64,000 bases of DNA from NCBI GenBank assembly GCA_030603665.1, contig JAUVXJ010000003.1, positions 85,377 to 149,376 on the forward strand, written 5' to 3'. The position numbers and the translations under genes were made by a program. Below, piece after piece: positions 17,017 through 47,426 of this stretch. The notes beneath the pieces are model-generated. The model ran no database searches, was not told the DNA's origin, and saw nothing but the letters and a program-made list of their open reading frames with translations. The DNA is from Chloroflexota bacterium (GTDB lineage: Bacteria; Chloroflexota; Anaerolineae; UBA7937; B3-Chlor). Position 1 is the stretch's first letter. Every line of letters begins with the position of its first letter.

Positions 17017-17043
17017 GCCCTCGCCCCTGTCGATTCGCGGGCC

Positions 17044-31162: not shown

Positions 31163-31175
31163 TGTTTCATACCTC

Positions 31176-32093: not shown

Positions 32094-32199
32094 GTCTGAG
32101 CCTGCCTGTCAATAGCCTCTTGCGCAAGTAGCCTGCAGGTCTACTGCCCCTGCATCATTTCAATAGCGCCCGCGGGACAATAGTATTAGTAGAGACAAC

Positions 32200-32970
32200 A
32201 ACCGGTGCACGCTCTTTCGTTCATCACAATCCGAGGGCCGTGCTCGGACAGGGCCAGACTCTCAGCAGCAGTCTTCTCCAGACAGATTCCGTCACACTTA
32301 CGGCAATTCTGCTAATCAGCGATGGATGCCTTCAGCGCGTGCAGGACTACTTCGTTGCCTTCGACGGAAGATTCCAGGGCACACCCTCTGATCTCGTGGC
32401 AGTCGCAGTAGCCATACTAGTTCAGTCAGTCTTCCAGGCCCGCCACACAGCCTGAAACATCCTGCAAACCACTCACGTAAACGGTGGAGCAAATGCTCAC
32501 AGCGCGCGCCCAACATCAGTCGCTCGACGATATGTTGCCAGGTCATCACTCCTCCGCCGCTGATGAGGGGTAGATCCACAGTCTTGGAGAGTATGGCGGT
32601 GTATTTCAAAGCGATGGGATTCAGTTCTGGCCCGGCAATCGCCGATAGCGCCTGGGTCTCGAGGCCCAGATAGATGGGTCGCCCACCGCGGGTGATATCC
32701 ACGCCGCGCAAGACCCCAAGCGTGTTGATGGCACCGTGGGGCGTCGGCGCTATTGGCTTTGCAGGCCTGGGCGACGCCGACCACATCTGGGGCTCTCGGC
32801 GATAGCTTGCCGATGACAGGGATATCTGCCGCCTGCTTTACCGCCTCAATGCTATGATCGCGGGTAGCTGGCATCCGCGGACCGGACAGGAAGCCAACTA
32901 CCCGCTTATCTGCCTGGTGCCTGCAGAAAGTACGAGTGTACCTGGCTATTGCAGGCTCCAACGGCGGCAT
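32200..32970 (-). pseudogene. degraded DHODH-like/PreA-like dehydrogenase gene (frameshifted) lying between the substrate-binding protein and permease genes
   Basis: Two overlapping minus-frame ORFs carry ...DIPVIGKLSPRAPDVVGVAQACKANSADA and ...ALKYTAILSKTVDLPLISGGGVMTWQHIVERLMLGARC. These match PreA-like paralog 1 at 35266-36474 (KIPVIAKVSPYVIDVSLLGLAAKQGGADG; YYTIVLAKNVGLPLSSVGGIMDWEIAVQRLMVGATT). Confidence 0.5.
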
Positions 32971-32982
32971 CGACCATAAGCA

Positions 32983-34650: not shown

Positions 34651-34678
34651 CTTCTCGTCCTCCTTATGCTAAGCTAAG

Positions 34679-34693
34679 GTGTATTGAATACAC
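34679..34693. promoter_or_regulatory. palindromic operator-like site GTGTATTgAATACAC upstream of the substrate-binding protein gene
   Basis: Perfect 7-bp arms around one central nt, 29 nt upstream of the ATG. It fits the GntR-type t.GT-N-AC.a pattern. Confidence 0.35.
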
Positions 34694-35265
34694 TGTATCC
34701 GTCGGGGTGTGCCGGATCCTCCTGGAGATCGTCGGTCTCCGCTGGTGCTTTGGGTATGGAGGAAGGCGATTCCCCCAGCGTTGCACTATCCTCCACAATC
34801 CTCCTGTGGCTTGACCTCACCTCCTTCCCCACGGCCCGAGTCATGGCAGCAGCGCAATCGCCAGTTCCGGAGACCGATCGCCACGCTTGAATCTCCTGCC
34901 TCCAACCCGAGTCTTTCCAGATCGCAAGCGGTGATCGTCTCACCGGGTCCTCTGCCGGTCAGTTCAAAGACTCGGCCCGCCAATCGACTGGCTGAAGAGC
35001 GCCCGAACCCAAAGTGGCGCAGTTCTCCAAGCGATGAACTGGCGCATCGCCACCGGTACCGCGGAGGGTGGCCCTGACAGCGCAGGGCAATGAACGCCCC
35101 ACGATCCGACAATTGGATCTTGCTCCCAGGCACGCATCGGGCAGACACCCCTTCGACCACCGATTCGCACAGCCGCCACCGAGAAGAAACGTCGGATTCA
35201 TCTGTGGCCTGCTGGCCGTGTCGTCTATTGTATGCCATCGCTGAGAGCTTGATGGCCAGCTGCTC

Positions 35266-36474
35266 TCACTTCTGGACGTCGATTCTGACCGCCCCCTCCG
35301 GAGCGTACCAGTAACACAGCGAACAACCAGTGCACGCGTCCTGGTCAATCACCGGCACACCACCCTGCATGGTAAGCGCCAGGCAATCTCCTTGAACCCG
35401 CTCTACGACTTCGTCCCAGCCATTCCAGGAAGTGTCAGTGATAACCGCCTTGAGTGGATGGAAGACCAGCTGTTCTCGGTCTACGATATAGGGCAACCCG
35501 AGGCCTATGATGTCCGCCGGACTGCGATAGCCGTATTCATCTAGAAAGCGGTTCATCCCCGCCACGCAATCCGTAACTGCTTTCAGGCCATTGAGATAGA
35601 CCGTAGAGCAGAGCTGCGCGGTAGTCGCCCCGACCATCAACCGCTGCACCGCAATCTCCCAATCCATGATGCCCCCAACGCTGGAGAGGGGTAATCCCAC
35701 GTTCTTGGCGAGGACGATTGTGTAATATGGCGACACATGGGTCGAAGGTGCGCCCATGGGCCCTGAAAGGGATTGGGCAGGCGTCCCGTCCTCCAATTCT
35801 ATACCGGGGAAGATCGGCTTTCCTCCGTTGCGGATGTCCACACCGGCAAAGCCACCCGCCCTAGCGGCGGCCGTAAGGCCATCAGCACCGCCTTGTTTGG
35901 CAGCCAACCCCAGAAGGCTCACGTCGATGACATAAGGCGATACCTTCGCGATCACCGGAATCTTCACCGCATCCTTCAGGGCTCTGGTCATTGCGCCGAC
36001 GAGTTCCGGATACTGGCCAATGCTATCGCCAGTGAAGACAGGGATGCCATCTTCTTCCTCGTGATAGATGTGGGCGCTGAGGGGAATCTCAAGCATGTCG
36101 GCGCCGGCCTTTTCCAGAGCCAGCCCGGCCTCCACCCAACTGTCTGCAAAGTAGGATTTGCCATTCACGTTGGCTATGATCGGGATATGCAGTTCCTTCT
36201 TCGCCGTCTTGATGAGATCTACGCCTTCCTCCAGGGTCAGGCGCCGGTCACCGCCCGCCACGGTCCAGGCGCCGTTGCCCAACATCACAGACCGGTAGGG
36301 TTGGCGGTCCACCCGCGGGGGGACAGCGTTGGAGGCCAGCTTGGTGACAATGCCACCGGCACCTGCTTCCTCCAAGCGTCGCAACTTGGTCGGATGGTTG
36401 GTAAGGGAGGAAGAGGCGATCAACACAGGGTTCTTGAACTCCACACCAGCAAACTCCACTCCTAGATTGGCCAC
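35266..36474 (-). CDS. DHODH-fold FMN-dependent dehydrogenase with C-terminal 2x[4Fe-4S] ferredoxin domain (PreA-like), paralog 1
   Basis: 402 aa with a TIM-barrel DHODH-like core and C-terminal ...IDQDACTGCSLCYWYAPEGA. A Ser (IPLSAH) replaces the active-site Cys of paralogs 2 and 3. Confidence 0.65.
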   Translation of the reverse strand: MANLGVEFAGVEFKNPVLIASSSLTNHPTKLRRLEEAGAGGIVTKLASNAVPPRVDRQPYRSVMLGNGAWTVAGGDRRLTLEEGVDLIKTAKKELHIPIIANVNGKSYFADSWVEAGLALEKAGADMLEIPLSAHIYHEEEDGIPVFTGDSIGQYPELVGAMTRALKDAVKIPVIAKVSPYVIDVSLLGLAAKQGGADGLTAAARAGGFAGVDIRNGGKPIFPGIELEDGTPAQSLSGPMGAPSTHVSPYYTIVLAKNVGLPLSSVGGIMDWEIAVQRLMVGATTAQLCSTVYLNGLKAVTDCVAGMNRFLDEYGYRSPADIIGLGLPYIVDREQLVFHPLKAVITDTSWNGWDEVVERVQGDCLALTMQGGVPVIDQDACTGCSLCYWYAPEGAVRIDVQK

Positions 36475-36576
36475 GGACAGCCTCCTTTCGCCAATTGGCG
36501 ACTTTCTTGTGTGGCTTGTTGGCAGTCACCCCCCCGGCGATTGTCAGGCAAGCCACGGGTCGCAATAGCCTAGTGA

Positions 36577-37299
36577 CTATGTTGCAGGTATCTTGTCATT
36601 GCCAGCATAGCCAGACCTTTCAAGGACTTCTCTGACCATGCGAAAGTGCTCGCGCATCGCTTCCTGTGCTTGTTCCTTATCCCCATTCTTGACCGCCTCA
36701 AAGATCTCCCTATGGCCCTCGAACGATAGCTCAGTGCTCCCCGGCGGTTCACTAGTTACTCGTCTGCTTTCCCGTAACAACTCTGCAAGCGGATTCAGCA
36801 GGATAGGCAACACCTCATTGTGCGCCCCCCTCGTGAGCAAGTCGTGGAATCGCAGATCTTCTTCAACATACTCACCCGGCGAATCAAGGACTTCAGCCTC
36901 ACGGCGCAGGGCTTTCTCTATCTCCTCCCGCTCCTCATCCGTTGCCCTCTCCGCCGCCAATCCTGCAATTTCGACCTCAAGGATCTCCCGAACTTCCAGC
37001 AGAGCCATAAGAGAGCTCTCGGTCATCCTAAGGTGAAGTGTGAGCGACTCCGTGACGCTATCCATCGATGGTTCGACAATATACACACCACTGCCATGCT
37101 TGACCTCGACCAATCCTCTTTCCTCCAGGGCCCTGATCGCCTCCCTGATCACCGTTCGGCTCACGCCAAACTCGTTGATCAATTCACGTTCCGGGGGCAG
37201 CTTGTCGCCGGGCCGTAGCTGCTGACGTACGATGAGGTCCTGAATCTGGGCCAGTACATCGACGTACAGCCTGTCCCGCCTTACTTCATGGTATTCCAT
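36577..37299 (-). CDS. GntR-family transcriptional regulator (FadR/FCD subfamily)
   Basis: wHTH PPERELINEFGVSRTVIREAIRALEERGLVEVKHGSGVYIV plus a C-terminal FCD-like helical domain. Start chosen at MEYHEVRRDR (ATG 37299). The upstream ATG 37368 sits directly on a TATAAT and operator repeats. Confidence 0.75.
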   Translation of the reverse strand: MEYHEVRRDRLYVDVLAQIQDLIVRQQLRPGDKLPPERELINEFGVSRTVIREAIRALEERGLVEVKHGSGVYIVEPSMDSVTESLTLHLRMTESSLMALLEVREILEVEIAGLAAERATDEEREEIEKALRREAEVLDSPGEYVEEDLRFHDLLTRGAHNEVLPILLNPLAELLRESRRVTSEPPGSTELSFEGHREIFEAVKNGDKEQAQEAMREHFRMVREVLERSGYAGNDKIPAT

Positions 37300-37368
37300 C
37301 CGAGGTTCCCCATTCCCGTCGAATGAACTCGAACCAGTATCCGCCCCAGCCAACCCAACAAAGGTCAT

Positions 37369-37407
37369 ATGGTTAGATGGTTACATGGTGATATGGTCAT
37401 TATACCA
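37369..37407. promoter_or_regulatory. four ATGGT direct repeats (8-bp period) ending in a TGGTcattatACCA inverted repeat; minus-strand TATAAT embedded
   Basis: The sequence is atggttagatggttacatggtgatatggtcattatacca. TGGT-N6-ACCA fits GntR/FadR-type operators. The reverse complement of attata (37399-37404) gives a -10 for the GntR gene. Confidence 0.35.
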
Positions 37408-37424
37408 CTTTCTCTATCGCTTGT

Positions 37425-37437
37425 CAAGTTAAACTTG
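37425..37437. promoter_or_regulatory. perfect palindrome CAAGTTaAACTTG in the GntR / surface-protein divergent intergenic region
   Basis: 6-bp arms around a single central nt. Confidence 0.3.
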
Positions 37438-37577
37438 GCCGTCCCAACTCAGAAGTGTGCTGCTTTCGGTTGAAGAGTGAATGCGGTGCTGGATTCCCTT
37501 GGCATTCTTGAGGACTAAGCCATGGATCAAGATCACAAGTGCTGTTCCGATAGGCAGGGCGGCAGCACCACTCCTCT

Positions 37578-37606
37578 TTGCCCTGCCTCTGCTCCCATGG
37601 TACAAT
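37578..37606 (+). promoter_or_regulatory. promoter TTGCCC-N17-TACAAT for the 37652 gene
   Basis: Hexamers at 37578-37583 and 37601-37606. The ATG lies 46 nt downstream. Confidence 0.4.
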
Positions 37607-37651
37607 GCCTCTCGATTCTCTTGTAGCTCTTTCTTACCAGGAGGGATGGGA

Positions 37652-39523
37652 ATGAAGAAGAGAGGCATAGTGGCGCACTCACTGTCCGTGGCAGTCATCT
37701 TTCTGGGCATCGTAACGAGCGTGGCGCTGGCAGCTCCTCCGGAGACGCCCCCCAATGCGATCACCATCGCCGGCAGCCCCCTGCGGATCGAAGTCGGCCA
37801 CAACATGAGCATTCAGGTGTACCACCAGAACTACGAACACGGGGCGACCTACGGCGATGCCGACAGCGGCCCGGCCTGGTACATCGATGGCCAGATCTAT
37901 GGGCCGGACCTGCTATCCCACGGAGACTCTGCGGCCTTCAATTCCAGCGAGCTGACCTGGATCGATCACCGAGGGCCTTCGGGGTCGGGCACGCTAGGGG
38001 ATCCCTGGCGCGTAGAGACGACCGGCCAGTTGAGCACCGGTACGTCCACTCTGGACGTGACGCAGCTAATCTCCTACGTGAATGGCCGCAACTACTTCCA
38101 GCTGGACTGGACCATGACCAATCGCGGGGGAGGTCAGAGCTGCTTCAAGTTCTACCACGCCGCCGACATCTATTTCGCCAACGACGACTACGGGTTCGGC
38201 TACTATGACGCTGGATCGGGCTCGGTAGGTGGATACGACGAGAATCGCACCTGGTTCATGGTTTTCGCACCAATCACGCGGCCGGACCGATACAGGGAAG
38301 CCTACTATGACAGCATCTGGGAGGATGTTCAGTCAGGCAGGGATCTGGACAACACCATCGACGCCGAGTACTTAGACAACGGCATCGGTCTGCAATGGAA
38401 CCTCTGCCTTGCGGCCGGCGAGACCCAGACAATCAGCAACCTGTGGAGCTTCGGCCAGAGCGAGGCCGAGGTCATCCCCACCGTGGTCGCCCGAGCGACG
38501 CCTGAGGGGCCCGGGGCGGTGGATGTGATGGTCAGGGATCACATCAACGACGACGGCTCAGTCCCTTCCAACCCTAACGGTGAACCCTTCTGGATGAGTC
38601 CGGATGTCATCGTCCGCCACGAGGCCGACGGCAGAACGGGAGAGACCGATTTCCAGAACCCCACCTTCGGTCAGACCAACTACATCTACGTCACGGTGCG
38701 TAACATCGGTACCGAGAACGCGTCCAACGTTAGGGTCAACGTCTATTGGGGCGACCCTGCGCTCCTCCTCGCCTGGCCTGACAGCTGGAACTTCATCGGC
38801 GCAGCGACTGTGGACGTACCGGCAGGAGGGCGATCCGTCACTCCAGAGATCGCCTGGACGAACCTTCCCAGCCCTGGACATCGGTGCCTCTTGGTCCGAT
38901 TGGAGTCTGACCAGGACCCCATCCGCGATGAGGGAAACGTTCCAGGGGACAATAACATCGCTCAGCGCAACCTGCACATCCTGGAGCTGCCCCGCGGCGC
39001 GGATTCCAGCACGGGCAGCGAGGATGTGGAGGCGATTGCCGTCGGTCCTCCCAACGCCGAGACGGCCCAAGTTGACATCGCCGTCCAGTATCCGGATCTG
39101 CCTCCTGGCGCCCAACTGATCATCCGCATAGAAAGGGACCTGTTCGACCGCTGGATGCAGGCCACAGGCGGCGATGTGGTCAACGGGACCGTTCGAGGTG
39201 AGGAGATTATCGCCACCGGCCCCGACGAGACCATCATCCGCGACCTGCCCCTGAACCCAGGGGAGCAAGCGCCAATCACCATCCACATCGACGCTCCCAT
39301 CGCAGACCCCTTCAGTTTCCAGGTTGTGGAGAGAGTGAACGGAGTGGACACAGGGGGCAATGTGTACTGGCACACCGCCCTGCTGCCTGAGCCCACACCG
39401 GAGACCGGCGACGACGGCGTCGATCTGCCTGAGATCAAACTGCCCAGCGAGCTCACCTGCACTATCCCTTGCTTCGGGGCGATACTGCTCACGCTGTTGG
39501 TGCTGTGGTTGATCAGGCCATAG
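37652..39523 (+). CDS. large secreted/cell-surface protein with signal peptide and C-terminal TM anchor, hypothetical
   Basis: SD AGGAGGG is 6 nt before ATG 37652 (MKKRGIVAHSLSVAVIFLGIVTSVALA). The protein ends ...CFGAILLTLLVLWLIRP. Internal beta-rich regions, no family assigned. Confidence 0.55.
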   Translation: MKKRGIVAHSLSVAVIFLGIVTSVALAAPPETPPNAITIAGSPLRIEVGHNMSIQVYHQNYEHGATYGDADSGPAWYIDGQIYGPDLLSHGDSAAFNSSELTWIDHRGPSGSGTLGDPWRVETTGQLSTGTSTLDVTQLISYVNGRNYFQLDWTMTNRGGGQSCFKFYHAADIYFANDDYGFGYYDAGSGSVGGYDENRTWFMVFAPITRPDRYREAYYDSIWEDVQSGRDLDNTIDAEYLDNGIGLQWNLCLAAGETQTISNLWSFGQSEAEVIPTVVARATPEGPGAVDVMVRDHINDDGSVPSNPNGEPFWMSPDVIVRHEADGRTGETDFQNPTFGQTNYIYVTVRNIGTENASNVRVNVYWGDPALLLAWPDSWNFIGAATVDVPAGGRSVTPEIAWTNLPSPGHRCLLVRLESDQDPIRDEGNVPGDNNIAQRNLHILELPRGADSSTGSEDVEAIAVGPPNAETAQVDIAVQYPDLPPGAQLIIRIERDLFDRWMQATGGDVVNGTVRGEEIIATGPDETIIRDLPLNPGEQAPITIHIDAPIADPFSFQVVERVNGVDTGGNVYWHTALLPEPTPETGDDGVDLPEIKLPSELTCTIPCFGAILLTLLVLWLIRP

Positions 39524-39633
39524 AGTGAAGCAGAATGCTATGCGCCCGCTTGGCGTGGGCCTTAGCCTGAACTTCCATAAGGAGACTGCCGGGCTGTCCT
39601 CTGGACGAGTAGGCATTCGTGCAGCTGCCGGGT

Positions 39634-40821
39634 CTAAGGCGGCACCATGGTAATACATCCCTCCACCGGGCACACGTGTGTGCAAAGGGAGCAGCCATCG
39701 CACCTCTCGATCACCACCCGAGGGTACACCTCCCGGCTCTCCATCTCGATAGCCTGCCAGCCCCCGTCCATGCACGCGGTGTGGCACAGCCCGCACCTGC
39801 TGCAGAGAGCCTCGTCGATCGCAGCTACCACCTTGTGCGCAAAGTCCAACTCCTCATGCGCCGTGATCTTGGGCAGGATCTCACCTCTCATCTCACCCAA
39901 GGACTGGAATCCCTTCTCATCCATGTAGGCAGAAAGGCCCTTCTTCATCTTCTCCACTGTCCCATAGCCCTGCAACATGACCGCCGTGCACACCTGCACC
40001 GTCGAGGCGCCCACCAGTATGTACTCCGCCGCATCCTGCCACCTGCCGATGCCGCCGATGCCCGATAGCGGAATACCCGTCCCCTTCGCCAACTGAGCGA
40101 TACAACGCAGACCTATAGGCTTGATCCCAGGCCCTGAGTAGCCTCCCAAGGCTGAGGTTCCCCCCACCGACGGCAAGGGCTCCAGTCGGTCGAGATCTAC
40201 TCCGATGAGCGCCGAGACCGTATCTATGGCCGCAATAGCGTCGGCTCCAGCTTCCTCGCAGGATCTACCTATCTGTGCAATGTCGGTCACATTCGGGGTG
40301 AGCTTGACCATCACCGGCACCGTAGCTATCTCCTTTGCCCACCGTGTGATCTCTCCGGCGATGGTGGGGTCTTGGCCCTGGATTGAGCCCATCCCCTTCC
40401 CCGGCATGCCATGGGGGCAACCGAAGTCGAGCTGAACACCGTCTACACCGGCTTCTTCAACCTGCTTGATCAAGGAGTGCCACTCCTCTCTCACGACTCC
40501 GGCCGTCAGACTGGCGAAAAGCACGTGATCGGGATAATGGCGCTTGATATCCTCGATGTCCTTGACCCACACGTCAAGCTCGCGCTGGCTGACTAGTTCG
40601 ATGTTCTCCAGGCCGATGGTCTTATTAGCCATCACCAGACGCGCCAAACGAGGCCGGGCGTCGACGGCTGGTTGTAGGGCGATACTCTTGGTCACGGCTC
40701 CGGCCCACCCCGCCCCAAAGGCCCTCTGGATCATCTCCCCGGTCGCCGTTGGAGGGGCTGGAGCCAACATGAAGGGATTCATCAACTGGAGGCCTGCGAA
40801 TTCAACCTTCAGATCGGCCAT
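39634..40821 (-). CDS. PreA-like FMN/Fe-S dehydrogenase (DHODH fold + 2x[4Fe-4S]), paralog 2
   Basis: 395 aa. NFGCPHGMPGKGMG active-site region (Cys). C-terminal CSRCGLCHTAC...CDGCSLCTHVCP. Confidence 0.7.
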   Translation of the reverse strand: MADLKVEFAGLQLMNPFMLAPAPPTATGEMIQRAFGAGWAGAVTKSIALQPAVDARPRLARLVMANKTIGLENIELVSQRELDVWVKDIEDIKRHYPDHVLFASLTAGVVREEWHSLIKQVEEAGVDGVQLDFGCPHGMPGKGMGSIQGQDPTIAGEITRWAKEIATVPVMVKLTPNVTDIAQIGRSCEEAGADAIAAIDTVSALIGVDLDRLEPLPSVGGTSALGGYSGPGIKPIGLRCIAQLAKGTGIPLSGIGGIGRWQDAAEYILVGASTVQVCTAVMLQGYGTVEKMKKGLSAYMDEKGFQSLGEMRGEILPKITAHEELDFAHKVVAAIDEALCSRCGLCHTACMDGGWQAIEMESREVYPRVVIERCDGCSLCTHVCPVEGCITMVPP

Positions 40822-41008
40822 CCCTCACCTCCTCTGCCACCAAGCGGCGACGATCCGTCCATCGGCCCCAAGCTTGTTTTCCCAGGGGGATCTGTATCGT
40901 GGATGTCGAAACGATTCAGCGGGGCCTCGTGACAGTGCTACTGACTATGGCGCGAACACCGTCCGTCGTGACCTGCTGGCGCAAGCCAGTGGTGGCGGCC
41001 ATCCATAT

Positions 41009-42382
41009 CTACACGCGCTTTCGCCTCAGAAACTGACCAGACCCTGCCTCGCCCAGAAACTGGCCATCTCTGACTATGATCTTGCCTCTCTGCATAGTCA
41101 GGACAGGGTACCCTCTCACGGTGATGTGGTCATAGGGGCTGTGATCCACATTCATGTGCAGGTTTTCCACACTGAGGCGAACCTCCTTCTGGGGGTCGAA
41201 GACGACCAGGTCCGCATCTGCCCCAATCGAGATAGTGCCTTTCTGAGGAGCCAGGCCGAATAGGCGCGCAGGATTGGTGGAGACCAGCTCCACAAACTTG
41301 TTCACGGAGAACCGGCCTTCGTTGACCCCGAAGTGGTACATCAAGGGCACTCGGGTCTCCACGCCAGGCATGCCGTTGGGTATCATGGAGAAATCGTCCT
41401 TGCCCATGTCCTTCTGGCCGACGAAGTTGAAGGGGCAGTGGTCGGTGCTTACCACCTGCAAGTCGCCCGACATTAGCCCTTGCCAAAGCGATTCCTCATT
41501 GCCCTCATCTCGTAGCGGGGGGGACATTACGTACTTCGCGCCTTCGAAGTTGGGCAGTCTGTAATGCTCGATGTTGAAGAAAAGATACTGAGGGCAAGTC
41601 TCGGCCAGAACGCGCTGCCCCTTATCCCGGGCCTCTTTGATCTTCTCCAGGGCCTGAGCCGCACTCGTATGAACGATGTAGATAGGGGCCTTGGCCAGAG
41701 CGGCCAGGCTGGCGGCCCGGCCGACGGCCTCGGCCTCAGCCTCGGGGGGATGGCTCAGGGCGTGCCAAATCGGCTCCTTCTTGCCCTCGGCCAGGTGCTG
41801 ATTGATGAGGTGGTGCAAGACATCGCCGTTCTCGGCGTGCACCATGATCAGCGCTCCAAGGTCTCTGGCCTTCAGAAGGGACTTGAAAAGGGTTTCATCG
41901 TCCACCATGAACGCACCCTTGTAGGCCATGAAGAGTTTAAAACTGGTAATGCCCTGCTCCACCAGCTCAGCCATCTCCACATTCATCACTTCGTCGGTCA
42001 TGTCCCCTATGGCCACGTGGAAGCCATAGTCGATGGCCGCCTTGTCCTTGGCTCGGGCCATCCAGGTCTCCAGGGCCTGGTGTAGACTCTCTCCCTCCCC
42101 CTGGATGGCGAAGTCTACGAAGGTCGTGGTGCCCCCAAATGCTGCGGCGATGCTCCCGGTCTCGAAATCGTCCGCCGACACGGTGCCCATGAAAGGCAGC
42201 TCGAAGTGGGTGTGGATGTCGATGCCTCCGGGGAACACGTAGTTGCCCTGGGCATCGATGGTCTCTGCGCCCTCAAGATGCAGGCCCAGCGCCGCGATCT
42301 TCCCCTCTTTGATGCCGATGTCGGCCTGGTATGTCTCCGTGGCCGTAGCAATGATCCCATTCGTGATTACAGTGTCCATCAT
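41009..42382 (-). CDS. dihydropyrimidinase / D-hydantoinase (cyclic amidohydrolase)
   Basis: PGGIDIHTHF metal-binding motif, carboxylated-Lys region, length ~458 aa. Start chosen at MMDTVITNGII. The upstream ORF-track extension (MAAPFAHTC...) is antisense to the preA paralog 3' end. Confidence 0.85.
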   Translation of the reverse strand: MMDTVITNGIIATATETYQADIGIKEGKIAALGLHLEGAETIDAQGNYVFPGGIDIHTHFELPFMGTVSADDFETGSIAAAFGGTTTFVDFAIQGEGESLHQALETWMARAKDKAAIDYGFHVAIGDMTDEVMNVEMAELVEQGITSFKLFMAYKGAFMVDDETLFKSLLKARDLGALIMVHAENGDVLHHLINQHLAEGKKEPIWHALSHPPEAEAEAVGRAASLAALAKAPIYIVHTSAAQALEKIKEARDKGQRVLAETCPQYLFFNIEHYRLPNFEGAKYVMSPPLRDEGNEESLWQGLMSGDLQVVSTDHCPFNFVGQKDMGKDDFSMIPNGMPGVETRVPLMYHFGVNEGRFSVNKFVELVSTNPARLFGLAPQKGTISIGADADLVVFDPQKEVRLSVENLHMNVDHSPYDHITVRGYPVLTMQRGKIIVRDGQFLGEAGSGQFLRRKRV

Positions 42383-42389
42383 CGCCCCC

Positions 42390-43595
42390 CTAGGAATGCT
42401 GCGTCGTCTGAAGCGGCACCATGGTAATACATCCCTCCACCGGGCACACGTGTGTGCAAAGGGAGCAGCCATCGCACCTCTCGATCACCACCTGAGGGTA
42501 CACCTCCCGGCTCTCCATCTCGATGGCCTGCCAGCCCCCATCCCTGCACGCGGTGTGGCACAGCCCGCACCTGCTGCAGAGAGCCTCGTCGATCGCAGCT
42601 ACCACCTTGTGGCCAAAGTCCAACTCCTCATGCGCCGTGATCTTGGGCAGGATCTTCCCGCTCATCTCATCTACAGACTGGAAGCCCTTCTCGTCCATGT
42701 AGGCAGAAAGACCCTTCTTCATCTTCTCCACTATCCCGTAGCCCTGCAACATGGCCGCCGTGCACACCTGCACCGTCGAGGCGCCCACCAGTATGTACTC
42801 CGCCGCATCCTGCCACCTGCCGATGCCGCCAATGCCCGATAGCGGAAGGCCCGTCCCCTTCGCCAACTGAGCGACACAACGCAGACCTATAGGTTTGACC
42901 CCAGGCCCTGAGTAGCCCCCCAAGGATGAGGTTCCCCCCACCGAGGGCAAGGGCTCCAGTCGGTCGAGATCTACGCCAATGAGCGCCGAGACCGTGTTGA
43001 TAGCGGAAATGGCATCGGCCCCGGCCTCCTCACACGCCTGGCCTATCTGCACGATGTCCGTGACATTGGGGGTAAGCTTGACCATCACCGGCACCGAAGC
43101 TATTTCCTTTGCCCACCGAGTAATATCTCCGGCGATGGTGGGGTCTTGCCCCTGCACAGACCCCATCCCCTTTGCCGGCATACCGTGAGGGCAACCGAAG
43201 TTCAGTTCCAGACCATCAACACCGGCTTCTTCAACCTGTTTGATCAACGAATGCCACTCCTCGATGGCCACGGCACCCATCAGGCTTGCGAAGAGGATGT
43301 GATGGGGATAATGGCGCTTGATATCCTCGATATCCTTGACCCAGGTGTCCAGATTCCGCTGGCTGATCAGTTCGATGTTCTCCAGGCCGATGGTTCTATT
43401 GGCCATGGCCAAACGCGCCAAACGAGGCCGGGCATCGATCGCTGCTTCCAGCGCAATGGTCTTGGTGATCGCCCCGGACCACCCTGCCTCAAAGGCCCGC
43501 TGGATCATCTCGCCTTTCGCTGTTGGGGGAGCTGAAGCCAACATGAAGGGGCTCATGCAGTTGAGACCGGCGAACTCAATGCCTAGGTCAGCCAT
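42390..43595 (-). CDS. PreA-like FMN/Fe-S dehydrogenase, paralog 3 (~88% aa identity to paralog 2)
   Basis: 401 aa. Near-identical to 39634-40821 over its whole length, including the Fe-S tail. Confidence 0.7.
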   Translation of the reverse strand: MADLGIEFAGLNCMSPFMLASAPPTAKGEMIQRAFEAGWSGAITKTIALEAAIDARPRLARLAMANRTIGLENIELISQRNLDTWVKDIEDIKRHYPHHILFASLMGAVAIEEWHSLIKQVEEAGVDGLELNFGCPHGMPAKGMGSVQGQDPTIAGDITRWAKEIASVPVMVKLTPNVTDIVQIGQACEEAGADAISAINTVSALIGVDLDRLEPLPSVGGTSSLGGYSGPGVKPIGLRCVAQLAKGTGLPLSGIGGIGRWQDAAEYILVGASTVQVCTAAMLQGYGIVEKMKKGLSAYMDEKGFQSVDEMSGKILPKITAHEELDFGHKVVAAIDEALCSRCGLCHTACRDGGWQAIEMESREVYPQVVIERCDGCSLCTHVCPVEGCITMVPLQTTQHS

Positions 43596-43613
43596 CCTTC
43601 ATCTCCTTGAGAA

Positions 43614-44447
43614 CTAGGCGTCGACGATCTTCCCATACGCATCCGGCCTACGATCACGGTAGAACTGCCATTCGTTGCGGACCTGCCTGACTATGTCCAG
43701 GTCCAGGTCGGCCACCAGCACCTCTTCCTCGGTGTCGGAGGCCTGAGCTATGATCTTGCCGCGAGGATCGCAAAAGTAACTGGATCCATAGAAATCATTC
43801 GGCCCTAACTCAGTCTCCTGCCCCACGCGATTGATGGTTCCCACGAAGTAACCGTTAGCGATGGCGTGAGCGGTCTGTTCGATGTGCCAGAGGTGCATTG
43901 ACAGCCCCCGCGACGTAGCGGAGGGCATATACACGATTTCGGCCCCGTTCAGCCCCAGCACGCGCGCGCCCTCAGGAAAGTGGCGATCGTAGCAGATGTA
44001 GACACCTACTCGGCCATACCTGGTCTCGAAGACAGGGTAGCCCAAGTTCCCGGGTCGGAAGTAGAACTTCTCCCAGAAACCAGGTAGTTGAGGGATGTGG
44101 GTCTTACGATACTTGCCCAGCAGCGTCCCGTCGGCATCGATGACCGCTGCGGTGTTGTAGTAGATGCCCGGGGCATCCTCCTCATAGAGAGGCAGAACCA
44201 GAACCATGGAGTGCTTCTTCGCCACCTCCTGCATGCGTTCGGTCGTGGGTCCTGGGATCGGCTCGACGTGGTCGTACCATTTGGTGTCTTGAACCTGACA
44301 GAAGTAAGGACCGGAGAACAGCTCCTGCAAGCACGTGATCTGGGAGCCTTGACCGGCTGCCTCTTCGATGAGCTCAAGGTGCTTGACGATGTTCTCTTCC
44401 TTGTCCAGGCTACCCGTAGTCTGGATCAGAGCACTTCGCACAATCAT
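43614..44447 (-). CDS. carbon-nitrogen hydrolase family: N-carbamoyl-D-amino-acid amidohydrolase / beta-ureidopropionase-like
   Basis: 277 aa. Nitrilase-superfamily pattern with the E-K-C catalytic triad context (ITCLQELF...; YRKTHIP...; ICYDRHFPE). Confidence 0.75.
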   Translation of the reverse strand: MIVRSALIQTTGSLDKEENIVKHLELIEEAAGQGSQITCLQELFSGPYFCQVQDTKWYDHVEPIPGPTTERMQEVAKKHSMVLVLPLYEEDAPGIYYNTAAVIDADGTLLGKYRKTHIPQLPGFWEKFYFRPGNLGYPVFETRYGRVGVYICYDRHFPEGARVLGLNGAEIVYMPSATSRGLSMHLWHIEQTAHAIANGYFVGTINRVGQETELGPNDFYGSSYFCDPRGKIIAQASDTEEEVLVADLDLDIVRQVRNEWQFYRDRRPDAYGKIVDA

Positions 44448-44916
44448 TTCACCCTCCTTCGCATCCGGGATTGGAGCCAGTGATTTTAGTACAGGAAGCT
44501 AGCTTTGTCAAGTGTAGAGAACGCTTCGGGAGCGTGTCTCACGCCGTGAGGTCGTCTCATTGCTTGAAGACGTGGCGCAAGTCCTTTCATACCGCTACCC
44601 TAGGGCCGTGAGGAGGTGTGGCCATCCAGGTGAGATGACCCTCGAGACACTGTAGCACGTCCGGGCCAGCGAAGCAGCGAGTGCAGCAGCATCGAGTCCA
44701 GGACCGATGGGTTGGATTACTCATTGCCGACCAAATGACGACACCCGGCGAACCTCCTGGAGATCCTGCCTCGCGATCTGAGAGCCCTGCTGAACTAGAG
44801 CGACTGACGGCCGGGGCTGCGCATTGGATCCCAAATCTTGGACTCGGTGAGAGCCATGGTGCAGCACGCGTCCGGCGCTCTCCGCCCGTTCCCCTCGCCT
44901 GCAGGACTGGAGCGTG

Positions 44917-44945
44917 TTGCACGAGCCCCGCATCTTCGCTATGAT
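44917..44945 (+). promoter_or_regulatory. promoter TTGCAC-N17-TATGAT for the C25 peptidase gene
   Basis: Hexamers at 44917-44922 and 44940-44945. ATG at 44967. Confidence 0.4.
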
Positions 44946-44966
44946 AGAAGTGGCGCAGAGAACTGG

Positions 44967-47231
44967 ATGGAGAGCTTGTCACGACGCTCGCGAAGCAGAT
45001 TCCCAACCCTCCGTAGACCTCTCTGCCTGGCAATGGTGGCCGGGACGGTACTCCTTGGTCTCTGTCTACCTCCCCTCTCTCACACCGCTGGCCTTCGGGC
45101 GCACGCCGCACAACAGCTCCAGCAGGATGCCCCACGGGTGGACGTCGTTGAGTCTAGCACGGAGGGCATCACTCTGGACGCCGCGGTGCCTGTGCCACTG
45201 GAAGAAGTCGTCCAGCAGCAGGCCACAAGCTTTCAGCGCCTTACCCTCCAGGGTGCAGGTTCCGTCAGCCAGATCGGCCAGCCAGAACTTCCATCCTTCG
45301 CTCGTTTTGTGGCCATTCCTCGCGGAGCCACAGTTCAGGTCAAGGTGCTGGCAGATGCGATGGAGACCCGCTCGGGCTACCTGCTCTACCCGGCTCAGGA
45401 ACCTCGCTCAGAGCAGGGTGAGGAGCCGGACTTCACCCTGGACCTAGCTGCATACCAGAGTGATGAGTTCCTTCCCTCGGACCTGGTGACGCTGGAAGGC
45501 CCCTACGTCATTCGCGGGGTGCAGGTGGTACTGGTCAGGTTCCATCCCGTCCAGTACAACGCCGCCAATCAGGAACTCAGGGCCCACTCCAACCTGCGCG
45601 TGCGTCTCACCTTCGAAGGTGGGGGCGCGATGCTGTCCGACGAGCGTCTCCGCTCTCGCTACTTCGAGCCCCTTCTGGCCAGGACGCTTCTTAACTACAC
45701 GCAACTGGAGCCAACTGCGCAAAGTCTGGGGTCGAGCTTGAGCAGCGGAACCGGGTGCGACTTTCTGATCATCACCGCGCCTGAGTTCGTGAATCAGGCC
45801 AATCTCCTGGCCGACTGGAAGATCCGCAGAGGTATAGACACTAGGGTTAGAACCACCACCCAGACCGGGCCGACGGCTCCCACCATCCAGAGCTACATCC
45901 AGAACGCCTACGACACTTGGAACCCGGCTCCCTCCTTCGTCCTCTTCCTCGGCGACGCCGAATTCATCCCCACCAACTATGTGACCAAGCACCCTGGCCA
46001 GCAACCACCAGGTTCCTACATCGGCACGGATCTCTACTACGCCACCGTGGACGGCAGCGACTACTTTCCCGACATCAGCACGGGGCGCATCTCCGTGGAC
46101 ACAGCGAACCAGGCGTGGCGCATCGTCAACAAGATCATCAACTACGAGCGATCTCCGCCCTATAGGGCCAGTTTCTACTCCACCGTGGCCCTGGCCGCCT
46201 ACTTCCAGGACGAGAACGTGCCACTGACGCGAGAGGACCGCAAATGGGTGCGCACCTCCGAGGAGATAGGCAGCTATCTTGGCGGCATCGGGTACGATGA
46301 GCAGCGCATCTACTACGCTGAGCCTTGGGTCGACCCATTGTACTACAGTGACGGGAGTTCTCTGCCCTCCTATTTGCGGAGGGAGAATGGCTTCCCCTGG
46401 ATAGGGAGCACGTCAGAAATCGTGAACTCGGTGAACGATGGCCGCTTGATCCTCAATCACCGCGACCATGGGTGGAGAATGATGTGGGCGATACCAGAAC
46501 TCCAGGTGTCCGATGTCCTGGGTCTGACCAATGGCGCCAGGCTGCCCGTGGTGTTCAGCATCAACTGCGAGACCGGCTGGTTTGACAACGAGACCGACAG
46601 CCCTGACCACGGCACGCCCAGTGGCGAGGTCAACTTCGCTGAGGCCTGGCAGCGGAACCAGAACGGTGGCGCCGCCGGGATCGTCGCTCCAACGCGGATA
46701 AGCTACGGCGGCTACAACGACCATCTGGACAAGGGCCTTATCGACGCCGTGTGGCCCGGTTTCCTGTCCTATACCCCCACACCCGGTCCCTTCTCCAACC
46801 CGCAGTACAGAATGGGGCAGGTTCTGAACTATGCCAAGCTGTACATGGCCACCGTGTACGGCGAGAGCACCACACGCCAGATCACCTTCGAGATGTTCCA
46901 CTACTTCGGCGATCCCACAATGGAGATCTGGACCGCCCAACCCTGGAACATGGCTGTGTACCGCTCGCCCCTCTATTTCACCGACGCCACTTCATACACG
47001 GTGGGCGTCCAAGATGGGGCGCTGGTCTCCCTGGTCAAGAACGGCGAGATACTGGGCACGGCGCTCTCGACAGGAGGGGAGGCCACTGTCACCCTATCGG
47101 CGCCGCCGACCTTTGGCACCATCTATCTCACCGTCACCAAGCACAACCGCAGGCCCTACGAGTCCACCGTCCAGGTGGTGACGGAAAACATGTCTCTCCA
47201 GGGGTACGTGCCGCTCGTCCTGGGTCAATAG
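44967..47231 (+). CDS. secreted peptidase family C25 (gingipain-like cysteine peptidase)
   Basis: Signal/Tat-like N-terminus MESLSRRSRSRFPTLRRPLCLAMVAGTVLLGL. C25 hallmarks GCDFLIITAPEFVNQANLLADWKIRRGIDTRV and FVLFLGDAEFIPTNY...GTDLYYATVDGSDYFPDISTGRI. Start at ATG 44967 rather than the ORF-track start. Confidence 0.7.
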   Translation: MESLSRRSRSRFPTLRRPLCLAMVAGTVLLGLCLPPLSHTAGLRAHAAQQLQQDAPRVDVVESSTEGITLDAAVPVPLEEVVQQQATSFQRLTLQGAGSVSQIGQPELPSFARFVAIPRGATVQVKVLADAMETRSGYLLYPAQEPRSEQGEEPDFTLDLAAYQSDEFLPSDLVTLEGPYVIRGVQVVLVRFHPVQYNAANQELRAHSNLRVRLTFEGGGAMLSDERLRSRYFEPLLARTLLNYTQLEPTAQSLGSSLSSGTGCDFLIITAPEFVNQANLLADWKIRRGIDTRVRTTTQTGPTAPTIQSYIQNAYDTWNPAPSFVLFLGDAEFIPTNYVTKHPGQQPPGSYIGTDLYYATVDGSDYFPDISTGRISVDTANQAWRIVNKIINYERSPPYRASFYSTVALAAYFQDENVPLTREDRKWVRTSEEIGSYLGGIGYDEQRIYYAEPWVDPLYYSDGSSLPSYLRRENGFPWIGSTSEIVNSVNDGRLILNHRDHGWRMMWAIPELQVSDVLGLTNGARLPVVFSINCETGWFDNETDSPDHGTPSGEVNFAEAWQRNQNGGAAGIVAPTRISYGGYNDHLDKGLIDAVWPGFLSYTPTPGPFSNPQYRMGQVLNYAKLYMATVYGESTTRQITFEMFHYFGDPTMEIWTAQPWNMAVYRSPLYFTDATSYTVGVQDGALVSLVKNGEILGTALSTGGEATVTLSAPPTFGTIYLTVTKHNRRPYESTVQVVTENMSLQGYVPLVLGQ

Positions 47232-47322: not shown

Positions 47323-47331
47323 TGGTATAAT
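47323..47331 (+). promoter_or_regulatory. extended -10 element TGgTATAAT upstream of the chagasin-papain gene
   Basis: TG at 47323-47324 and TATAAT at 47326-47331. The -35 is weak (TTTCCG). Confidence 0.35.
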
Positions 47332-47426
47332 TGGTCTTGCGGGAGGGTCGATTGAGCCCCCCGCCGGTCTGGCTTGGACTCGGGGGCAGAGAACCCGCAA
47401 TTCCGCGATGGGAGGGTGTATCCTAC

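Follow-up and report, generated by a model that had tools for sequence, protein, structure and literature searches.

How does an operon that appears to degrade pyrimidines work when it encodes two reductases of the PreA type and no PreT partner is encoded beside them? The window analysed here is 64 kb of DNA from a Chloroflexota bacterium (Anaerolineae), and it is part of a 413-kb contig. Our joint reading, with a probability of about 0.6, is that this locus holds a PreT-less, ferredoxin-fed reductive pyrimidine-degradation operon with a remodelled second isozyme, and that its layout is derived from a deletion. In this operon, a stripped-down reductase without an NADH-binding partner would be paired with a long-conserved second copy whose base-binding pocket is altered.

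Gene content of the operon

The genes reported in the initial annotation were confirmed in place, and all of them lie on the minus strand. Gene identities were assigned by HMM scores above curated cut-offs, and the relatives with solved structures concur. The features of the operon are as follows.

39634-44447, minus strand: Pyd operon, in the order CN-hydrolase, PreA, dihydropyrimidinase, PreA
44483-44511, minus strand: promoter-like site TTGACA-17 nt-TAAAAT, 36 nt before the operon's first gene
43614-44447, minus strand: pydC-type CN-hydrolase, predicted beta-ureidopropionase (N-carbamoyl-beta-alanine amidohydrolase); Pfam CN_hydrolase E 3e-68
42390-43595, minus strand: PreA/PydA2-type reductase of the canonical "NN" type, 401 aa, FMN barrel and C-terminal 2x[4Fe-4S]; NF006183
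41009-42382, minus strand: pydB dihydropyrimidinase / D-hydantoinase; TIGR02033 608 bits, cut-off 393
40978-40988, no strand: junction of a 3.76-kb deletion in which class-III aminotransferase, aldehyde dehydrogenase and rubrerythrin-like genes were lost
39634-40821, minus strand: PreA-type reductase of the variant "DD" type, 395 aa, with remodelled pyrimidine pocket; NF006183 497 bits

Transcription of the operon may start from the promoter-like site at about position 44500. This site agrees with the consensus at 11 of 12 positions and is a consensus match only; there were 2 such matches in 5.6 kb, compared with 1.4 ± 1.1 in shuffled sequences, and the other does not lie upstream of the operon. 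We propose that uracil or thymine is reduced at C5=C6 by a minimal reductase of the PreA type (FMN barrel and one C-terminal 2x[4Fe-4S] domain), after which the dihydropyrimidinase would open the ring and the CN-hydrolase would yield beta-alanine, CO2 and ammonia.

The NN copy reached 526 bits with the NCBIfam PreA model NF006183 (cut-off 335) and aligned to residues 531-1009 of pig DPD, whose numbering is used here for the pocket residues. It keeps K574, N609, N668, C671, K709, N736 and T737 and all 8 Cys. Its ORF begins at the first position of the model, and only 19 nt separate it from the upstream gene, which leaves no space for Fdx1 or an FAD domain at the N-terminus. The ORF of the dihydropyrimidinase spans 41009-42472, but translation probably begins at the ATG at 42382, which is preceded by a GGGGG run and lies 8 nt past the PreA stop. 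This protein matched the solved Bacillus D-hydantoinases and the Brevibacillus agri dihydropyrimidinase with 552-559 bits. The nearest solved relatives of the CN-hydrolase were N-carbamoylputrescine amidohydrolase (216 bits), Drosophila beta-alanine synthase (194 bits) and human beta-ureidopropionase (182 bits), and it is 58-63% identical to its counterpart in Bacteroidota Pyd clusters that contain PreT and PreA. With the NCBIfam model for N-carbamoylputrescine amidase it reached 274 bits, below the cut-off of 410.

Operon order in related genomes

In independent assemblies, the operon has seven genes in the order CN-hydrolase, PreA (NN), dihydropyrimidinase, class-III aminotransferase, aldehyde dehydrogenase, rubrerythrin-like gene (Rbr) and PreA (DD). 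The NN copy is always in the second position and the DD copy always follows Rbr, in 12 related loci and in the window, where Rbr was deleted. Positions 44626-40978 of the window align to 8965-12618 of the related locus L006 (92% nucleotide identity), and positions 40988-39624 align to 16376-17740 (89%); no part of the window corresponds to the L006 segment 12618-16376. Furthermore, the three genes are still present in L037-L039, whose DD genes are 94-97% identical to that of the window. The layout with two PreA genes flanking the dihydropyrimidinase is therefore the result of a recent 3.76-kb deletion from the seven-gene operon. The initial annotation had seen here a tandem expansion of paralogs around the ring-opening enzyme; what lies there is an old pair of two types, brought together by the loss of three genes.

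The class-III aminotransferase of the sister operons is a beta-alanine aminotransferase, and a pathway extending from beta-alanine through malonic semialdehyde to acetyl-CoA has been named before (PMC7332683). These genes bear on the substrate of the cluster, since the initial annotation also offered 5-substituted hydantoins or dihydro-heterocycles as a different substrate. The cluster would then run a hydantoinase-carbamoylase process in place of pyrimidine breakdown. D-hydantoinases and dihydropyrimidinases are one enzyme family, the best solved matches of the window protein are named D-hydantoinase, and the neighbouring unit described below has its origin in a family associated with HyuAB hydantoinases. 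However, hydrolysis of hydantoins does not need a C=C reductase, and every uracil-binding residue is present in the NN copy. The CN-hydrolase scores 182-194 bits with beta-alanine synthases and only about 100 bits with D-carbamoylases, and is thus nearer to the former. In addition, the aminotransferase and aldehyde dehydrogenase of the sister operons form the known beta-alanine extension, and an NCS1 cytosine/uracil-type permease accompanies a more distant relative. We regard hydantoin breakdown as very unlikely, and pyrimidine breakdown is preferred.

Absence of PreT and the supply of electrons

The initial annotation had described a cluster for dihydropyrimidine-type catabolism in which the PreA-type reductases lack a nearby PreT, and our searches agreed. 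tblastn with E. coli PreT on the 64-kb window gave a best E of 0.14, and this match fell on the Fe-S domain of PreA itself. The PreT profile HMM found nothing at E ≤ 10 in all six-frame ORFs of the window, and Pfam scans of 60 window ORFs found no Pyr_redox_2 or Fer4_20 domain. Furthermore, the absence is conserved: PreT was not found beside about 30 related Chloroflexota loci (45-97% identity), nor within ±10 kb in the Anaerolineales loci, and the more distant Chloroflexota loci (55-59% identity) are likewise PreT-less. As a positive control, the same search found PreT directly upstream of PreA in 12 loci of Bacteroidota, Sericytochromatia and Burkholderiales (two scans).

The enzymes might nevertheless be ordinary NAD(P)H-dependent dihydropyrimidine dehydrogenases, with a PreT- or GltD-like subunit encoded elsewhere and the two PreA copies as redundant isozymes. 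Both copies score above the equivalog cut-off of the NCBIfam PreA model. Anaerobes commonly have GltD-family proteins, which could serve several complexes, and our search of the organism's own genome spans 64 kb of the 413-kb contig. In L007, a weak PreT-like ORF (3-1967, 58.7 bits) lies 8 kb from the operon. However, a Pyr_redox_2 partner is in the adjacent ORF for 2781 of 3419 bacterial PydA candidates (PMC7332683), and the partner is also adjacent in every Bacteroidota-type locus that we recovered, whereas all of the Chloroflexota loci lack it. Thus, we think that a distant NAD(P)H-binding subunit is unlikely.

The closest precedent for a ferredoxin-fed enzyme is PydAc of Clostridium, which is without FAD and NADPH domains; methyl viologen or ferredoxin can drive its reduction of uracil, whereas NAD(P)H cannot (PMC7332683). 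The suggestion in the initial annotation that ferredoxin donates electrons through the Fe-S clusters matches this enzyme, and since PydAc has been published, the idea is not new. However, PydAc retains two ferredoxin domains, either within a single ORF or split so that Fdx1 is an ORF of its own, whereas the window enzymes are smaller and have the FMN domain and one ferredoxin domain, with no Fdx1. Thus, electron entry may differ from that of PydAc. Because PreT, an FAD/NAD(P)H domain and Fdx1 are all absent, a low-potential one-electron carrier would have to deliver the electrons to the two C-terminal clusters. By analogy with clostridial PydAc, reduced ferredoxin is most likely this carrier.

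The window also contains the following feature, given as context only.

21614-24177, minus strand: IorA/IorB-like 2-oxoacid:ferredoxin oxidoreductase, with POR_N, TPP_enzyme_C and Fer4 domains at 22258-24177 and a POR gamma domain at 21614-22306

These genes show that the organism has ferredoxin-linked metabolism, and they may be linked to the Pyd operon. Against ferredoxin as the donor, the C-terminal domain of the reductases reads as acidic, not basic, and offers no obvious docking surface for an acidic ferredoxin.

The variant reductase and its pocket

The two PreA copies share 87% identity in a gap-free alignment of 394 aa, close to the ~88% estimated before, and they are not redundant. 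The DD copy carries N668D and N736D, that is, Asp at 2 of the 3 uracil-binding Asn, and retains N609, C671, T737, both FMN lysines and all 8 Cys. Six columns (M642T, E666Q, N668D, E677G, S733A and N736D) separate 21 DD from 50 NN proteins with a consistency of 100% and 95%. The NN residues M642, E666, N668 and N736 are common to the pig, E. coli and Bacteroidota enzymes, while E677 and S733 vary. E666Q and E677G are charge-compensating changes.

In structure 1H7X, the O4 of the bound pyrimidine (5-fluorouracil) touches N668 ND2, N736 ND2 and S670, N3 touches N736 OD1, and N1 and O2 touch N609 and T737 (PMC10970046). The DD copy keeps N609 and T737, whereas the Asn pair in contact with O4 is changed. 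It keeps its flavin and its hydride/proton machinery, and it would be expected to favour a ring with hydrogen-bond donors at position 4. A shift of specificity to a different substrate is plausible for this copy; the initial annotation had raised a different substrate without singling out the gene. A precedent for altered heterocycle specificity is the PydA homologue UacX/YgfK, which acts on 2,8-dioxopurine (PMC12507026).

Our leading hypothesis for this substrate is cytosine or 5-methylcytosine. After reduction, the 5,6-dihydro product would deaminate readily to dihydrouracil and join the same pathway: according to PMC2978359, cytosine with a saturated 5,6 bond is deaminated in hours to days, compared with about 50,000 years for normal cytosine. 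However, a protonated Asp could mimic Asn, and the DD enzyme might still reduce uracil. Furthermore, a distant family (P0339/P0391, 34-39% identity) has the same Q-D...D signature and adjoins biotin-carboxylase and CT_A_B/CT_C_D genes, not a Pyd operon; thus, the signature alone does not imply cytosine.

The DD copy is under purifying selection, with dN/dS of 0.11-0.20 among orthologues, equal to NN. Between the two copies of the window, dS is 0.99 over the 5' 200 codons and 0.13 over the 3' 194 codons. Codons 201-394 were homogenised by gene conversion, which ends right after codon 200, the N736D site, and the DD signature persists despite this conversion of the 3' half. Redundant isozymes would leave unexplained six invariant, charge-compensated pocket changes that were held against gene conversion. 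DD would rather be an old isozyme that has been maintained separately, although NJ trees did not resolve the DD type as monophyletic.

Another explanation is that DD is an obligate partner of NN, in a heterodimer with swapped Fe-S domains, and that its altered FMN site serves a non-ferredoxin donor, as a point of electron entry or of regulation. Both chains of the pig DPD dimer contribute Fe-S clusters to each electron path (PMC7332683), and in three lineages gene conversion has left the C-terminal halves (dimer and Fe-S) of the paralogs near-identical, which would suit a shared interface. In L010 and L011, however, both halves are equally diverged between the paralogs (dS about 1), so homogenisation is not required. 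DD was found only in operons that also hold NN, but NN occurs without DD in L001, L041, L042 and L047 and thus works alone. The catalytic Cys, N609 and T737 kept in DD also point to a pyrimidine-like substrate and not to a donor site, and we consider an obligate heterodimer quite improbable.

The neighbouring GntR / DHO_dh-like / ABC unit

A further unit (30335-37368) would be a separate and decaying system. Its features are as follows.

36577-37368, minus strand: GntR/FCD regulator of a separate operon; Pfam GntR E 6e-23, FCD E 1e-28
35266-36474, minus strand: degenerate DHO_dh-like protein of a HyuAB-associated family; PreA model 150 bits, cut-off 335
32983-34650, minus strand: SBP_bac_5 solute-binding protein of a peptide/opine-type ABC importer; Pfam E 8e-81
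about 32147-32916, minus strand: truncated, frameshifted DHO_dh-like pseudogene between the SBP_bac_5 gene and the permeases
31176-32093 and 30335-31162, minus strand: two ABC permease genes; Pfam BPD_transp_1

The regulator is 69% identical to the one located before the DHO_dh-like orthologue in L003, the SBP_bac_5 gene is placed as in L003 and L004, and the permeases are 51-53% identical to those of L003, with no ATPase gene after them. In the orthologous operons, HyuA and HyuB lie directly downstream of the DHO_dh-like gene; both are absent from the window. HyuAB hydantoinases are described as ATP-dependent.

The gene at 35266-36474 had been counted as a third PreA-like dehydrogenase of one system. 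It was rejected as PreA, with a score below the cut-off, 30% identity to the PreA copies and a family linked to HyuAB. The orthologues P0122-P0125 keep D668, N670, C671 and N736, whereas this protein has P, S, A and A; the supposed replacement of its active-site Cys by Ser is in fact Ala in the Cys column, with Ser one position earlier. A single partial CxxCxxC motif is left and all complete Fe-S motifs are lost. Since the catalytic residues and Fe-S motifs of its family are gone, the gene is probably a relic and its protein probably inactive. Its nearest relative, P0121, is scrambled at the same positions.

The fourth copy had been taken for a PreA pseudogene inside the ABC operon. The pseudogene is real and lies within the ABC unit, but the family to which it belongs is that of the third gene, not PreA. 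It is without about 140 N-terminal residues and has at least two frameshifts, because the tblastn pieces are read in three frames. Its best matches are the Fe-S-bearing P0127 and P0128 (45-54% identity), compared with 38-43% to the intact gene at 35266-36474.

Genes of the Pyd operon

The genes for reductive pyrimidine degradation (Pyd) are tightly packed on the minus strand. The two reductases are named here after their residues at positions 668 and 736 (pig dihydropyrimidine dehydrogenase, DPD, numbering), as the NN and DD copies.

39634-44447, minus strand, tightly packed four-gene operon
44511-44483, minus strand, promoter-like site ahead of the four genes (TTGACA-17-TAAAAT, near-consensus match)
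43614-44447, minus strand, carbon-nitrogen (CN) hydrolase
42390-43595, minus strand, PreA-type FMN/Fe-S reductase, NN copy (NF006183, 526 bits against a cut-off of 335)
41009-42472, minus strand, open reading frame (ORF) of a dihydropyrimidinase/D-hydantoinase, likely start ATG 42382 (TIGR02033, 608 against a cut-off of 393)
39634-40821, minus strand, second PreA-type reductase, DD copy (NF006183, 497 bits against 335)

NF006183 is the NCBIfam equivalog model for PreA (PreA/PydA2, DPD domains IV-V), and its 335 bits are a curated whole-protein cut-off. The likely start of the dihydropyrimidinase is 8 nt past the stop of the NN gene. When aligned to the pig enzyme, both reductases have the catalytic Cys671 and the FMN-binding Lys574 and Lys709. 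In addition, both end in a domain with eight cysteines for two [4Fe-4S] clusters (Pfam Fer4_21, E 1e-15 to 2e-16), in which the motifs CxxCxxCxxxC and CxxCxxCxxxCP are visible. The two copies are 87% identical without a gap. Thus, the initial annotation had described the sequence correctly. By annotation, the closest homologues are proteins of Anaerolineae/Chloroflexota MAGs.

The reductase is encoded together with a dihydropyrimidinase (PydB) and a ureidopropionase-type CN-hydrolase (PydC), the gene set of a Pyd cluster, and this trio stays together across Chloroflexota and Bacteroidota loci. Among catabolic enzymes, the CN-hydrolase is nearest to the beta-alanine synthases, and it is nearer to those than to the D-carbamoylases. 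The idea that the paralogs might prove to be dihydroorotate dehydrogenases did not hold. Class 1 dihydroorotate dehydrogenases (PyrD 1A/1B) have the DHO_dh (PF01180) FMN barrel and the catalytic Cys in common with both copies; however, their models score below the cut-offs (TIGR01037, 198-208 bits against 270; NF005574, 190-200 against 269), and both the C-terminal Fe-S domain and the gene neighbourhood match DPD instead of pyrimidine biosynthesis.

Operon layout and a 3.76-kb deletion

Among the related loci recovered for comparison, the gene order is CN-hydrolase, PreA (NN), dihydropyrimidinase, class-III aminotransferase, aldehyde dehydrogenase, rubrerythrin-like and PreA (DD), and no locus with both ends cut off departs from this common order. 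Window positions 44626-40978 align to 8965-12618 of the related locus L006, and 40988-39624 align to 16376-17740. The match on both sides of a clean gap indicates that a deletion removed the three middle genes, which all close relatives have.

40978-40988, junction of the 3.76-kb deletion (lost: aminotransferase, aldehyde dehydrogenase and rubrerythrin-like genes; L006 12618-16376)

We found no remnants of the aminotransferase, Aldedh, Rbr or hyuAB genes in the window. Three loci whose DD gene is 94-97% identical to that of the window (L037-L039) still carry the three genes, which argues that the deletion is recent; the gap is either such a recent event or an assembly variant.

The aminotransferase and aldehyde dehydrogenase are known to extend the Pyd pathway beyond beta-alanine, to acetyl-CoA or malonic semialdehyde (PMC7332683). 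Their presence in the sister operons points to pyrimidines rather than hydantoins as substrates. The hydantoin substrate proposed in the initial annotation is therefore disfavoured, and the affinity of the CN-hydrolase to beta-alanine synthases also speaks against it.

Local absence of PreT and the probable supply of electrons

No PreT subunit (Fer4_20 plus Pyr_redox_2), the usual NAD(P)H-binding partner of PreA, was found within the 64 kb, either adjacent to PreA or fused with it. A tblastn search with E. coli PreT (MG1655) gave a best E value of 0.14, on the Fe-S domain of PreA itself; a profile from 12 sequences had no match among the six-frame ORFs of the window; and Pfam scans of 60 window ORFs found neither Pyr_redox_2 nor Fer4_20. 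PreT was also absent from every Anaerolineales locus recovered, up to 10 kb on either side, and from two more distant Chloroflexota loci (55-59% identical), one of which adds an NCS1 cytosine/uracil-type permease. As a positive control, the same queries found PreT directly upstream of PreA in Bacteroidota, Sericytochromatia and Burkholderiales loci, whose PreA proteins are 47-54% identical. The claim that these PreA-like genes have no PreT partner is thus upheld, in the window and at the related Chloroflexota loci. Among the PreT-less loci, the sole weak match to the PreT profile (58.7 bits, E 1e-16) was a 655-aa ORF at L007:3-1967, 8 kb upstream of the operon, and it is probably a general Pyr_redox_2-type oxidoreductase.

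Both reductase ORFs open at the first residue of the FMN domain, and their Fe-S part is the C-terminal eight-Cys domain only. In addition, neither tblastn nor HMM searches found an Fdx1-like sequence in the window. A separate Fdx1 ORF, as in C. pasteurianum, was considered and rejected, since the operon (intergenic gaps of 19, 8 and 188 nt) has neither space nor a match for one. Reduced ferredoxin or some other carrier of low potential would hand electrons to the two C-terminal clusters, which would pass them on to FMN. Ferredoxin is inferred to be the donor by analogy with PydAc, the ferredoxin-dependent clostridial enzyme, and the one further piece of evidence is an IorAB-type 2-oxoacid:ferredoxin oxidoreductase encoded in the window. 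The initial annotation was thus right in part. Its main idea, ferredoxin as donor, fits the published PydAc class and to that extent was already known; for these reductases it stands as an analogy.

At a related locus, L002:6423-7177, a glutaredoxin gene and a fusion of a ferredoxin:thioredoxin-reductase-like catalytic subunit with a rubredoxin-like part lie directly upstream of the Pyd operon. A link of these genes to ferredoxin-dependent redox chemistry is possible; the pair is absent from the window.

Comparison with known reductases

The reductive breakdown of pyrimidines is textbook knowledge; 5-fluorouracil pharmacology targets its first enzyme, of which a ferredoxin-dependent form has been known since 2020. 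PydAc of Clostridium chromiireducens has no FAD/NADPH domains and sits in a Pyd cluster; methyl viologen or reduced ferredoxin can drive its reduction of uracil, and NAD(P)H cannot (PMC7332683). Of 3419 bacterial PydA candidates, 2781 have an adjacent Pyr_redox_2 protein, and the exceptions are mostly Clostridiales (PMC7332683). Of the ferredoxin domains, PydAc retains Fdx1 as well as Fdx2 (16 Cys); one ORF may encode both, or Fdx1 may have its own ORF, as in C. pasteurianum (PMC7332683).

Like PydAc, the proteins described here are PydA/PreA-type FMN enzymes that have neither FAD/NAD(P)H domains nor a Pyr_redox_2 neighbour and lie in a cluster with PydB and PydC. The NN copy also keeps the uracil-binding and catalytic residues, and the occurrence of PydAc in anaerobes with ferredoxin-based metabolism is counted as a further likeness. 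However, PydAc has two ferredoxin domains with 16 Cys, whereas the proteins here have the C-terminal domain only, with 8 Cys; the phylum is Chloroflexota instead of Clostridiales; and no DD-type second copy has been described for PydAc clusters. Since they start at the FMN domain, carry one eight-Cys domain and have no Fdx1, the proteins here are a further-reduced variant of the PydAc class.

E. coli PreA is 40-41% identical to these proteins, and domains IV-V of pig DPD align with them (mammalian structures PDB 1GTE and 1H7X). The FMN barrel, Cys671 and the C-terminal 2x[4Fe-4S] domain are common to PreT-PreA, DPD and both copies, and the asparagine triad is shared by the NN copy only. Unlike PreT-PreA, PydA1-PydA2 and DPD, the system here has no PreT/PydA1 and hence no NAD(P)H site, FAD or N-terminal Fe-S pair. 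Furthermore, in contrast to E. coli PreA and DPD, the DD copy has two of the three Asn replaced, as well as M642, E666 and E677.

UacX/YgfK are PydA-family reductases of 2,8-dioxopurine in anaerobic uric-acid degradation, and their unfavourable reduction is thought to be driven forward by the next hydrolysis step (PMC12507026). Likened here by description, they are a precedent for a PydA homologue that dearomatises another N-heterocycle, with an amidohydrolase acting next. Like the proteins here, UacX has no FAD and is of the PydAc kind. The gene context of UacX/YgfK is XdhD, SsnA, HyuA and YgeX; the DD gene instead lies within a pyrimidine operon.

The new content is therefore the one-ferredoxin-domain architecture, widespread in Chloroflexota, and the conserved DD-type second reductase. 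The minimal form has a single Fe-S domain and lacks a flavin/NAD(P)H module. It is used by a whole phylum-level group, Anaerolineae and other Chloroflexota, which are abundant in sediments and digesters, and it makes the entry of electrons a testable question. At present such proteins are annotated "NAD-dependent dihydropyrimidine dehydrogenase subunit PreA". This name probably gives the wrong cofactor in every case and, for the DD type, the wrong substrate as well.

The pocket of the DD copy

Both copies align to pig DPD without ambiguity (50% identity in the barrel). The NN copy has N609, N668, C671, N736 and T737. The DD copy has N668D and N736D; its catalytic Cys and the residues that read N1-C2=O are unchanged. 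In the 5-fluorouracil complex 1H7X, with contacts taken from a review, O4 is held by N668 ND2, N736 ND2 and S670, N3 by N736 OD1, and N1 and O2 by N609 and T737 (PMC10970046). Thus, the N668 and N736 changes fall exactly on the residues that read ring position 4.

Within the close clade, only six columns consistently separate the 21 DD proteins from the 50 NN proteins: M642T, E666Q, N668D, E677G, S733A and N736D. This signature gains two negative charges and loses two. Of the NN residues, M642, E666, N668 and N736 also occur in the enzymes of pig, E. coli and Bacteroidota; E677 and S733 are variable. Furthermore, purifying selection acts equally on the DD and the NN genes (dN/dS 0.11-0.20). 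Judged by their sequences, the two close copies are different enzymes, not redundant ones. The NN enzyme would reduce uracil or thymine, and the DD enzyme would reduce a ring with hydrogen-bond donors at position 4. A changed substrate specificity of the DD copy is the reading that we prefer on these pocket residues, with a probability of roughly 60%. A conserved second type rebuilt at the residues that read uracil O4 gives a clean and cheap biochemical prediction of a new specificity, possibly direct cytosine reduction.

That the substrates are specifically of the cytosine type, and the DD copy a cytosine or 5-methylcytosine reductase, is in our view less likely than not, although cytosine is the simplest candidate. 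The two carboxylates, in place of the amides that bind O4, would bind the 4-amino group and keep N3 protonated. A conserved Glu of the DNA cytosine-5 methyltransferases activates C6 by the same trick. In the cytosine reading, the flavin hydride could then attack C6. Cytosine with a saturated 5,6 bond loses its amino group in hours to days, against about 50,000 years for normal cytosine (PMC2978359). Since saturation makes the amino group hydrolytically labile, the product would enter the same pathway as dihydrouracil: ammonia would leave 5,6-dihydrocytosine, either spontaneously or with the dihydropyrimidinase, and the resulting dihydrouracil would join the Pyd pathway. If true, this would be a deaminase-free, ferredoxin-driven route of cytosine catabolism, carried out by the smallest known DPD-type enzyme, with electrons passing directly into a single two-cluster domain.

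We rejected the view that the DD signature generally marks a single function, because a distant Bathyarchaeia-like family has it in a non-Pyd context. In this PreA-like family (P0391 at L032:4023-5204, P0339 and P0346; 34-39% identical), the pocket signature is T-Q-D...G...D, and one member is annotated Bathyarchaeia. The neighbours of L032:4023-5204 are biotin carboxylase and CT_A_B/CT_C_D (urea-carboxylase / 5-oxoprolinase-type) genes, not a Pyd operon. In addition, N668/N736 occurs in 99 of 150 diverse PreA-family representatives, and the other recurrent classes are S668/N736 in PreT-PreA fusions of 830-860 aa, D668/N736 and S668/D736 (representatives include P0254, P0258, P0266, P0269 and P0271). 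The PreA family seems to hold several unexplored substrate classes.

Age of the paralogs and gene conversion

The synonymous divergence between the two copies is uneven along the gene at the window and at some related loci.

Paralog dS by part of the gene (locus; codons 1-200; codons 201-394)
Window; 0.99; 0.13
L006; 0.84; 0.20
L002; 0.36; 0.12
L010 and L011; about 1; about 1

In comparisons of orthologues, dS is similar in the 5′ and 3′ halves. These values together indicate that the duplication is old, about the age of this Anaerolineales clade. In some lineages, gene conversion has homogenised the 3′ half, which comprises the remaining barrel and the Fe-S domain; the mosaic pattern is present in the window, L006 and L002, and not in L010 or L011. 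In the window the tract boundary lies directly after codon 200, the N736D site. A recent tandem duplication of the two close copies was rejected, because their 5′ dS is 0.99 and both types occur in many genomes; the 87% identity is due to the gene-converted 3′ half. The unusual tandem expansion suggested by the initial annotation is thus an old gene pair whose present layout comes from the 3.76-kb deletion.

Neighbour-joining (NJ) trees, built from the whole protein and from either half separately, did not resolve a single origin of the DD type. Meanwhile, two loci carry mixtures. The operon-proximal PreA at L013:3-848 is a hybrid with N668 but A733/D736, and at L037:5113-7207 a DD-type 5′ part joins an NN-type 3′ end, after which comes a second dihydropyrimidinase. 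The latter arrangement is either a true recombinant or an artefact of the assembler, which may have jumped between the homogenised 3′ halves.

The third gene, the pseudogene and the HyuAB-linked family

The initial annotation had counted three PreA-like paralogs and a fourth copy as a pseudogene. These are two systems. The third gene (35266-36474) is 30% identical to the PreA copies and scores 150 bits with NF006183, below the cut-off of 335 (TIGR01037, 130 bits; NF005574, 105 bits). It has a single incomplete Cys motif and not the pyrimidine-binding set Asn609/Asn668/Asn736/Thr737. It belongs to a small DHO_dh-like family (members include P0122-P0130) which shares D668, N670, C671, N736 and a GDRR motif. 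The gene is 72-85% identical to family members and keeps the GDRR motif and the GntR/SBP_bac_5 context. However, it has Pro, Ser, Ala and Ala at 668, 670, 671 and 736, and its closest relative, P0121, is also scrambled there. A Ser had been read at its active site; the Cys671 column is in fact Ala. A working enzyme with Ser for Cys was rejected in favour of decay, because the orthologues keep the Cys and the other pocket residues.

32147-32916, pseudogene, truncated and twice-frameshifted copy of the Fe-S-bearing DHO_dh-like type

The initial annotation was right to call this gene a pseudogene, but it is not a fourth PreA copy. The GntR/DHO_dh-like unit, which is uncharacterised and decaying in this genome, is a system of its own and not part of the Pyd operon.

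The hyuAB genes are absent from the window. At related locus L003 the order is GntR, DHO_dh-like, Hydantoinase_A, Hydantoinase_B, SBP_bac_5, permease and permease. At L004 it is SBP_bac_5, two DHO_dh-like genes with Fe-S domains, PrpD-like, HyuA, HyuB and CN-hydrolase. These loci (L003:9194-19675 and L004:6368-17181) combine DHO_dh-like reductases (GDRR, D668/N670/C671) with ATP-dependent HyuA/HyuB-type hydantoinases and an SBP_bac_5 ABC importer, and the L004 system adds PrpD-like, CN-hydrolase and Asp/Glu-racemase-family genes. This suggests that an acidic lactam or hydantoin is first reduced and that its ring is then opened at the expense of ATP.

Other observations in the window

Downstream of the ABC permeases there are gene fragments at 28689-28958 and 24444-24671, among them a truncated POR_N piece that is 59% identical to the IorA-like N-terminus and a permease N-terminus fragment adjoining the IorA-like gene. 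At L003:19801-20622, a 273-aa ORF resembles a fusion of an IorA N-terminus with an aminotransferase C-terminus. The region downstream of the permeases appears to have been rearranged repeatedly.

Genes for secreted proteins flank the operon on the plus strand, at 37481-39523, 44838-47231 and 47331-49592. One protein, of 680 aa, begins with a signal-like sequence, ends in a hydrophobic tail and matches no Pfam family. Of the other two, one is a C25 (gingipain-type) peptidase, and in the second a papain-family peptidase is joined to a chagasin-type inhibitor domain. In addition, a 290-aa ORF at 3713-4585 on the plus strand matches the tubulin-like Pfam family Tubulin_2 (E 1.5e-22).
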